From NCBI GenBank assembly GCA_030668875.1, contig DAOVER010000014.1, positions 1-32,000 of the forward strand: 32,000 nucleotides of DNA, given 5' to 3'. This document shows positions 1 through 1,614 of this stretch, piece by piece (position 1 is the first letter of the stretch; the number at the start of each line of letters is the position of its first letter). Under the pieces are notes generated by a model. It saw only the letters and a program-made list of their open reading frames with translations. It was not told the DNA's origin and did no database searches. A program made the position numbers and the translations under genes. The stretch is from Candidatus Heimdallarchaeota archaeon. Its GTDB lineage: Archaea > Asgardarchaeota > Heimdallarchaeia > Heimdallarchaeales > Heimdallarchaeaceae.

Positions 1-1450
1 GGTGATTGAAACCTGGGTTCAACCAGGCTAAGACCCAGTAAACGCCGGAGCTAACTATGAGCTTCTTAAGGTAGGCAAATGCCTTGTCTGCTAATTACAG
101 ACGTCCATGAAGGGACCAACGAGGTGCCCACTGTCTCCACCTAAAGCCTACTGAACCCACAGTCCAGCGAACAGTCTGGAACGCACCATCGGGAAGAGAA
201 GACCCTGTGGAGCTTTACTGCTGTCAGGGGCTGTTGTATTGGTGTGCATACATAGCATAGTCAGGAAACGTTATATCCTACATTCTCCGGGATGTAGGGG
301 AGTTGATCTTGAAATACTGACTTTGTGCATTGGTACGACTTACCTCTCGCGAGGGGGACACCCCCTGCCTGGCAGTTTCACTGGGGCGGTAGCCTCTTGA
401 AAAGATATCAAGAGGGCCCAAAGCCAAGCTCAACCGGGACAGAAATCCGGTGTAGAGTGCAAGGGCAAAAGCTTGGTTGACTGTGAACTCACCAACACGG
501 TTCGCAGATGTTAACGCAGGGCCTAGCGATCCTTCGCAATGCCCTTAGTAGGCGGCGGAGGTGGCAGAAAAGTTACCCCAGGGGTAACTGCATTTCTTTA
601 TTACTTACGTATTAGAGTTGTGCTCTCATCTGGGTAACATTTATCTGTTGCACATTTTTTCAATTGGCAGAGCTAAAATAAATTATTAGAAAATTGCTCC
701 TGTCTTCAATTTCCGGTGAGGAAATTAAATAGGTTTTCGCCAAATTGGCATAATAAAATCTTGAACAGAATGGGTCCATTATCTGTCTGATATCCCAACA
801 AATTGATAAGGAATTCCCGAAAAAGATTAACAACACAACAGATGAAGAGCTACAACAATAAGCGTGAGTGACGATAGGTGACAGGATTTGTAACTACCCT
901 TTACCGGGTTGACAATTGATCCTCGAACCAATGTGCTATGTATTTTGCATAAGTGCAGCCCTGAACGGAGTTGTCGTGGGTAAGAGTTCACATCGACCTC
1001 ACGGCTTGCTACCTCGATGTCGGCTCTTCCTAGCTTGGTCCTGATTCAGGGGCCAAGAGTGGGGTTGTTCGCCCATTAAAAGGGAACGTGAGCTGGGTTT
1101 AGACCGTTGTGAGACAGGTTGGATTCTATCTGATGGTGCTGGCGGGCGATTGAGAGTAAAGTCTCCACAGTACGAGAGGAACAGGCGGCTGGGGCCGCTG
1201 GTGTATCGGTTGTTCTAAAGAGCATTGCCGAGTAGCTAAGCCCTTGTAGATAAGAGCGGAATGCATCTACGCTCGAAGCTACTCTCGAAACGAGTCGTCC
1301 ACTCTGCAACACTATAGAGGGACTGGTGACAGTAACTTTCGTTGTAGACGAGAACGCGGAAAGAAGATCCGTTTGATAGAGCAGGGGTGTACGCGTCGAG
1401 CTTAGGCGAGATGTTTAGCCCACTGCCACTAACTGTTCAAGCGTAGTTAG
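1..1450 (+). rRNA. rrl: 23S rRNA, 3' part (domains IV-VI), interrupted by an intron at 587-964; 5' part lies outside the window and the 3' end is approximate
   Basis: Conserved LSU motifs: GTAAACGCCGG...CTTAAGGTAG (H69 region), GAAGACCCTGTGGAGCTTTACT, CTGGGGCGG (P-loop), ACCTCGATGTCGGCTC, GAGCTGGGTTTAGACCGT and the sarcin-ricin loop AGTACGAGAGGAAC (~1169-1182). GC content is much higher than in the flanks. Confidence 0.98.
587..964 (+). other. Archaeal BHB-type intron in 23S rRNA (378 nt), between E. coli-equivalent A2450 and A2451
   Basis: An AT-rich insert splits the conserved GGGGTAAC-GGAGTTGTCG motif. The ends fold as inner stem 588-595/951-958 (CUGCAUUU/AAGUGCAG), bulge UAA 585-587, central helix GGGG 581-584/CCCU 959-962 and bulge GAA 963-965. 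Cutting after the second nt of each bulge restores GGGGUA|ACGGAG. The flanking AAC is duplicated, so the junction can slide by a few nt without changing the spliced product. Confidence 0.85.
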
Positions 1451-1614
1451 GCCAAATAGGAATCGGTTCGTCAGATTCTTGGAGAGTTCTTGTCAGCTGA
1501 TTTTAGTTTACATGAAATTTTTTCTTGACAAAAAAATCAGAGATGTGAAAAACATTTTAGTTTACTATTTTTCAACTTAGTAAATCAGCTTTAGAATCAC
1601 TTAGAAAATATTTG

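Follow-up and report, generated by a model that had tools for sequence, protein, structure and literature searches.

An insert in the 23S rRNA gene

The window, by which we mean the whole 32,000-nt stretch of Heimdallarchaeaceae DNA that was analysed, is the start of contig C9 and opens with the 3' portion of a 23S rRNA gene of archaeal type (1..1452, plus strand; RF02540, model positions 1963-2987, 809 bits) that is truncated at the contig start. The assembly comprises 99 contigs and is 92% complete, and no other 23S sequence was found in it. In the Rfam archaeal large-subunit alignment the gene shows a sole large gap, where 407 nt stand against 29 in the model. This corresponds to an insert of 378 nt at 587-964 (plus strand), the size given in a preliminary description of this DNA and the one obtained by direct reading. 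The insert holds no protein gene, and its interior is conserved over five genera.

Removal of 587-964 leaves the mature reading GGGGUA/ACGGAG (slash, junction). Relatives without an insert at the site read GGGGUAAC(A/G)GAGUUGUCG, and since these intron-free genes show the same sequence that excision of 587-964 produces, the predicted junction is right. In an E. coli 23S copy of 2903 nt, which is one nucleotide short of the standard 2904-nt gene, UAAC occupies 2448-2451; we take the standard numbering to be U2449, A2450, A2451 and C2452, and likewise assume the identities of D2449 and A2451. By sequence comparison the intron falls within the peptidyl-transferase centre, with the counterparts of E. 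coli A2450 and A2451 on either side of it. The preliminary description had proposed that canonical cleavage restores the mature sequence at the A2451 equivalent, and the intron-free relatives and the comparison with E. coli agree with it.

Window position 584, the equivalent of E. coli 2448, is G and not A (GGGGUAAC, compared with GGGAUAAC in the Rfam archaeal consensus and in E. coli). G at this position is common to many other Asgard 23S genes; a minority of Asgard genes have A.

The bulge-helix-bulge motif and its cut sites

The two ends of the insert and the adjoining exons form a motif of the bulge-helix-bulge (BHB) type, all parts of which lie on the plus strand. Two 3-nt bulges on opposite strands enclose a 4-bp GGGG/CCCU helix, a geometry that is kept in 15/15 homologues. 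The exon strand of this central helix, GGGG at 581-584, pairs with CCCU at 959-962, the intron strand near the 3' end of the insert, and all four pairs are kept in the 15 homologues, with one G-U replaced by G-C in one of them. The 5' bulge is UAA (585-587; splice site between A586 and A587), a sequence found in 14 of the 15 homologues and replaced by UAG in G042. The 3' bulge is GAA (963-965; splice site between A964 and A965), which is kept in 13 and reads GUA in G007 and AAA in G042. On the intron side, CUGCAUUU at 588-595 pairs with AAGUGCAG at 951-958, and the interior between these two strands measures about 355 nt. Beyond the 3' bulge the exon resumes at C966, where the 3' exon strand (966-974) of a weak outer, exon-exon helix begins; its partner lies at about 572-580.

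The central helix and the exon parts are invariant and therefore uninformative for or against pairing. The intron-side stem, by contrast, varies: two-sided compensatory changes occur among the 15 homologues in 4 of its 7 continuously paired positions (G-C to A-U, C-G to U-A, A-U to G-C and C-G to U-A), and an unbiased scan of all column pairs returned this stem as the helix with the best covariation support in the whole alignment. Across 12 named pairs in the 15 homologous introns, 178 of 180 cells hold standard pairs, compared with 58-92 of 180 when the partner is slid by 1-3 columns. None of 2000 column shuffles reached 178, a count that is not a probability because the shuffles ignore relatedness. 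The eighth pair, U595-A951, competes with a small adjacent hairpin and fails in 2 of the 15.

The outer helix behaves differently from the intron-side stem. A580 and C966 are never paired, C579-G967 is paired in 5 of 15 relatives, and of 8 candidate pairs only 4 are kept throughout the 15 sequences. For mini-substrates of 65 nt, a competing hairpin of the 5' exon is more stable than the BHB fold by 1-6 kcal/mol. Measured against the strict hBHBh' form, the flanking helices are thus unequal, the intron-side one having 7-8 bp and covarying, the exon-exon one being weak and interrupted. As the 3' bulge has no convincing outer helix to close it, and short substrates favour the 5'-exon hairpin, we conclude that the motif is a relaxed form, near HBh' or bulge-helix-loop; we assume that the EndA of this genome recognizes it. 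The bulges, the 4-bp central helix and the weak outer helix are as the preliminary description had them, and so is its terminal stem in presence and in pairing, except that the 8 bp assigned to it become 7-8 bp.

In the canonical pre-tRNA cut, the central helix takes in the first two anticodon bases, and the bulge consists of positions 36 and 37 and the first base of the intron (PMC4090602). In the window, A residues shared by the two bulges make three cut registers equivalent, and natural bulge variants break the tie. The bulges UAA and GUA of G007 exclude a cut after nucleotide 1. A cut after nucleotide 3 is excluded by UAG and AAA in G042, together with UAU and AAA in an unrelated intron at the same site in G096. 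With these variants, GGGGUAAC (UAAC) is restored in every case by one register alone, in which both bulges are cut after nucleotide 2, and this puts the predicted junction between A2450 and A2451.

The same variants bear on a group I self-splicing intron at LSU 2449, where the yeast mitochondrial omega intron resides. Such an intron would be cut after U585 and G963 and would give the same mature sequence in the window, which permits a 5' exon ending in U and an insert ending in G; the interior also contains conserved blocks. However, G042 has A and not G before the 3' exon, and in G007 the conserved A2450 would become U. Near the 5' end there is no internal guide for GGGGU, and GGGG pairs instead with the 3' end of the intron. 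The helix that covaries is the one required by a BHB motif. A search of 540-1010 with Rfam models, including the general Intron_gpI model, gave no group I or group II match at E values up to 10; a control of this kind had been put forward in the preliminary description, which expected a BHB intron. We regard self-splicing by a group I ribozyme as highly improbable and treat the insert as a BHB intron below.

Distribution in Asgard archaea and the intron interior

An insert occurs at exactly this site in 16/16 family genomes in which the region is assembled, 10 of them from the genus of the window and 6 from four other genera. The inserts are 340-420 nt long and mutually homologous (alignment statistics use 15 homologues), and two of the genomes that carry them are closed single contigs of 3,081,793 and 3,326,783 bp. 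We conclude that the intron is fixed across the whole family and is not peculiar to one genome. Foreign DNA joined into an rRNA contig during assembly or binning would also produce an insert, and the contig does start within the 23S gene, in a kind of region that is error-prone in metagenomes. Against this, the same insert is found at the same base in 16 separate assemblies, including the two closed ones, and the intron-bearing form is present in many DNA runs that are independent of one another: 15 runs, whose type is given as DNA or not given, contain 0.75-0.96 of the words of the region in this form. The chance of such an artefact appears negligible.

The order comprises 46 genomes. In its three other families this insert is missing, and another, different insert lies some 25 nt further downstream, between E. 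coli 2477 and 2478. A survey of Asgard 23S genes for inserts at the same site had been suggested in the preliminary description. We sampled 399 Asgard genomes and took 40 regions, of which 35 were informative; the regions were hand-picked from the match table, and the following counts are not frequencies. In 22 of the 35 the gene reads straight through both sites, 8 have mini-introns at the downstream site, and 5 (families f31, f12, f28 and f7) have an insert between A2450 and A2451 with the same motif design. No sequence similarity was detectable between these 5 same-site inserts and the intron of the family. Unrelated same-site introns end in CCCU or CCCC in three other Asgard families and in UCCC in G306. 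The same-site introns of G385 and G323 are 739-791 nt long, and a 220-aa LAGLIDADG open reading frame was confirmed in that of G385. We conclude that introns recur at the A2450-A2451 position of Asgard 23S genes, and that the window carries an ORF-less one, which is fixed in a single family.

Several other elements were observed in these genes. The LAGLIDADG frame of G385 (L058:128-790:+; also L060, G323) matches LAGLIDADG_3 over its 220 aa (Pfam E 3.3e-10) and is a candidate homing endonuclease for this rRNA target. Besides the three other families of the order, several further Asgard families have BHB inserts of about 30-480 nt (L018-L030, L063-L071, L080) at the second site, which lies between E. 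coli 2477 and 2478 at the tip of helix 89 (about window position 990); the family of the window has none there. A third insert, of about 150 nt and with a BHB-like stem, lies near E. coli 2600-2602 (about window position 1114), likewise within the peptidyl-transferase centre. Seven species of the genus have it (L008 and L208 of G012, plus six others), but the window does not. In one closed genome, G045, an extra insert of 676 nt occurs earlier in the 23S gene (L207:2447-3202:-) and has a 187-aa frame with two LAGLIDADG-like motifs; the other closed genome is without it.

Within the intron of the window we found no open reading frame of note, the longest stop-to-stop frame being one of 77 aa on the opposite strand. 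A tblastn search with the same-site Asgard endonuclease for a remnant of such a gene gave nothing below E = 1.5, and a profile search of the interior against the whole genome gave no second copy of the intron. A pattern scan of contigs for two conserved intron blocks was unspecific, with chance matches in bacteria, and was discarded. The interior is 65-95% identical to that of relatives, compared with 0.36-0.60 for the 300-nt stretch of spacer that follows the gene, which is at shuffle level (shuffled sequence, 0.25-0.52), and several of its blocks are invariant across five genera. A consensus fold of the interior has few conserved helices and little covariation, and is too thin to propose a structure.

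The invariant blocks, the conservation of the interior relative to the spacer, and loss of the intron in 0/16 genomes despite its having no homing endonuclease argue for a protein-free interior that is a functional RNA kept by selection and not decaying filler, although we consider this reading unlikely on balance. Such an interior may be a cis-acting fold that parts the halves of the peptidyl-transferase loop until late 50S assembly, in which case splicing would be an assembly checkpoint. Alternatively, it may persist as a stable RNA circle that has its own function.

Joined exons in RNA, splicing enzymes and known systems

Scanning metagenome contigs for the spliced junction in family-specific exon sequence yielded two contigs, L203 and L204, each of them a 23S molecule whose two ends are linked, 3' to 5'. 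L203 consists of model positions 2356-2987, then 40 nt, then model positions 1-2024; L204 consists of the last 106 nt of the 23S sequence followed by model positions 1-2883. In family genomes the two strands of the 23S processing stem read ...GGCG-AAA-A-CUGAU... on the 5' side and ...CGUC-AGA-UUCUUGG... on the 3' side, whereas the contigs read ...GUCAG/AACUGAU... at the joint, so that both bulges, AAA and AGA, have been cut after nucleotide 2. The joint is the cut-and-ligated processing stem and is encoded in no family genome, and L203 and L204 therefore derive from RNA.

In the window, the 3' strand of the 23S processing stem lies at 1457-1499 (plus strand), with its AGA bulge at 1473-1475, and pairs with the 5' leader in relatives. 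L203 and L204 represent circular 23S rRNA, or a circular precursor of it, in Heimdallarchaeaceae; circular 23S rRNA is known from archaea (PMC12918454).

L203 and L204 are 91-93% identical to family exons and continuous across the predicted exon-exon junction. They align to window positions 1-588 and 964-1302, and the intron is absent from both. L204 is colinear with seven family genes except for a break at L204 2547-2549 in 7/7, which is the intron; beyond that, G045 and G012 have a further insert apiece. Both contigs stem from species of the family that lie outside the genomes examined, and the intron was present in all 16 family genes seen. In the RNA of close family relatives, the intron is precisely absent and the exons are joined. 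From the RNA of these relatives we infer splicing in the genome of the window itself.

The insert could instead be retained as an expansion segment, or be excised without rejoining of the flanks, as in fragmented bacterial 23S rRNA. Large expansion segments do occur in Asgard rRNAs (PMC7594248), and one RNA run contains 0.94 of the words of the region, which means that intron sequence occurs in RNA samples. RNA runs with 0.49-0.65 of the words would fit RNA of exons only (exons make up half of the stretch) and were not counted as evidence. The RNA-derived 23S contigs of relatives, however, are continuous over the junction and without the insert, which speaks against both retention and fragmentation, and retention would moreover place the segment between two adenines of the catalytic centre and not in a surface helix. 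We consider this alternative very improbable and return to excision with exon ligation.

The genome encodes the enzymes that this requires. An EndA alpha subunit of 185 aa contains both domains (99 bits); another EndA paralogue, of 182 aa (48.5 bits), is 24% identical to the first, and the pair corresponds to the expected two-subunit enzyme. The genes of the two subunits lie at L033:1453-2010:- and L034:1447-1995:-. Asgard EndA is reported to be an (alpha-beta)2 enzyme with an L1 loop, which permits relaxed motifs (PMC5829648). RtcB is encoded in one 999-aa frame (533 bits; G000 contig C91, L213:298-3297:+), in which an intein (Intein_splicing, 86 bits) takes up about residues 108-608.

In the precursor, GGGG of the exon pairs with CCCU, and 588-595 with 951-958, leaving UAA and GAA as bulges on opposite strands. 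In the mechanism we propose, the two-subunit EndA would cut after A586 and A964, the second nucleotide of each bulge, RtcB would ligate the exons, and RtcB would probably also close the excised intron into a circle. Throughout the family the intron, which has no homing-endonuclease gene, is passed on vertically.

Taken together, a splice-site helix that covaries, bulge variants that fix the cuts, the presence of EndA and RtcB, and relatives' RNA contigs that contain the junction uphold the assignment to the BHB class made in the preliminary description. We are confident that the insert is an archaeal BHB intron in the 23S rRNA, between the A2450 and A2451 equivalents, that would be excised by EndA, with the exons joined by RtcB. 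We expect splicing to be obligatory, since no other 23S gene was seen in the genome and an insert at this place is incompatible with a functional catalytic centre.

In this family, every ribosome would then need the tRNA-splicing enzymes if its catalytic centre is to be restored, and the same probably holds for several other families. Ribosome production in Asgard archaea, the archaeal group placed closest to eukaryotes (PMC8813620), would thereby be tied to EndA and RtcB, and rRNA would add to the tRNA-intron load already known from them. There are practical consequences as well. Inserts of this kind break rRNA gene finders, primers, probes and assemblies (the contig studied here starts inside the gene), and they have to be removed from Asgard 23S alignments and trees. 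A site that holds unrelated introns, of which one of the two large ones was checked and has a homing-endonuclease gene, offers a natural series for intron gain, endonuclease loss and fixation.

BHB introns in rRNA genes have long been known from Thermoproteota (PMC4496867, PMC6125680). Our literature search turned up no paper that describes BHB introns in the rRNA genes of Asgard archaea and, in the literature searched, no report of an archaeal intron between A2450 and A2451. PMC7594248 says no more on the subject than that the sequences added to its alignment had been stripped of known intronic regions. The intron described here is a known kind of intron in a new lineage and at a new place.

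The closest counterparts are the ORF-less BHB introns in 16S and 23S genes of Thermoproteales and Desulfurococcales (Kjems and Garrett; Jay and Inskeep 2015, PMC4496867). They share with the present intron the type of host gene, the EndA-cut motif, the lack of an endonuclease gene and a location at a highly conserved, functionally central rRNA site. The present intron differs from them in its host, an Asgard archaeon of the Heimdall group, in its position between A2450 and A2451, in being fixed in a family rather than patchy, and in an interior that is much better conserved than the neighbouring spacer.

The BHB processing stems of pre-rRNA, which lead to circular 23S rRNA (PMC12918454, which cites Tang et al. 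2002), involve the same enzymes and the same cut rule, and in L203 and L204 a single molecule shows both events. Processing-stem cuts, however, free a whole rRNA from its precursor, whereas the intron cuts remove an internal piece and rejoin the body of the rRNA. The abundant tRNA introns of Asgard genomes are alike in their splicing machinery and in the relaxed motifs that it tolerates (PMC11291895; bioRxiv 10.64898/2026.10.13.758758). Both reports deal with tRNA genes only and describe no rRNA introns: all intron passages found in PMC11291895 are about tRNA, and the word rRNA does not occur in the bioRxiv report.

The LAGLIDADG-type BHB introns of G385 and G323 share with the intron of the window the insertion point, a half of the motif that is made of exon GGGG and UA, and the CCCU end. 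Their 739-791 nt nevertheless show no detectable similarity to it, and the intron of the window is without an ORF or a remnant of one. The peptidyl-transferase loop is a hot spot for mobile introns, among them the yeast mitochondrial omega intron, a self-splicing group I ribozyme with the endonuclease I-SceI. The omega intron at LSU 2449 occupies practically the same spot as the intron of the window, but the latter lacks a ribozyme core, and its splice sites obey the rule of the splicing endonuclease.
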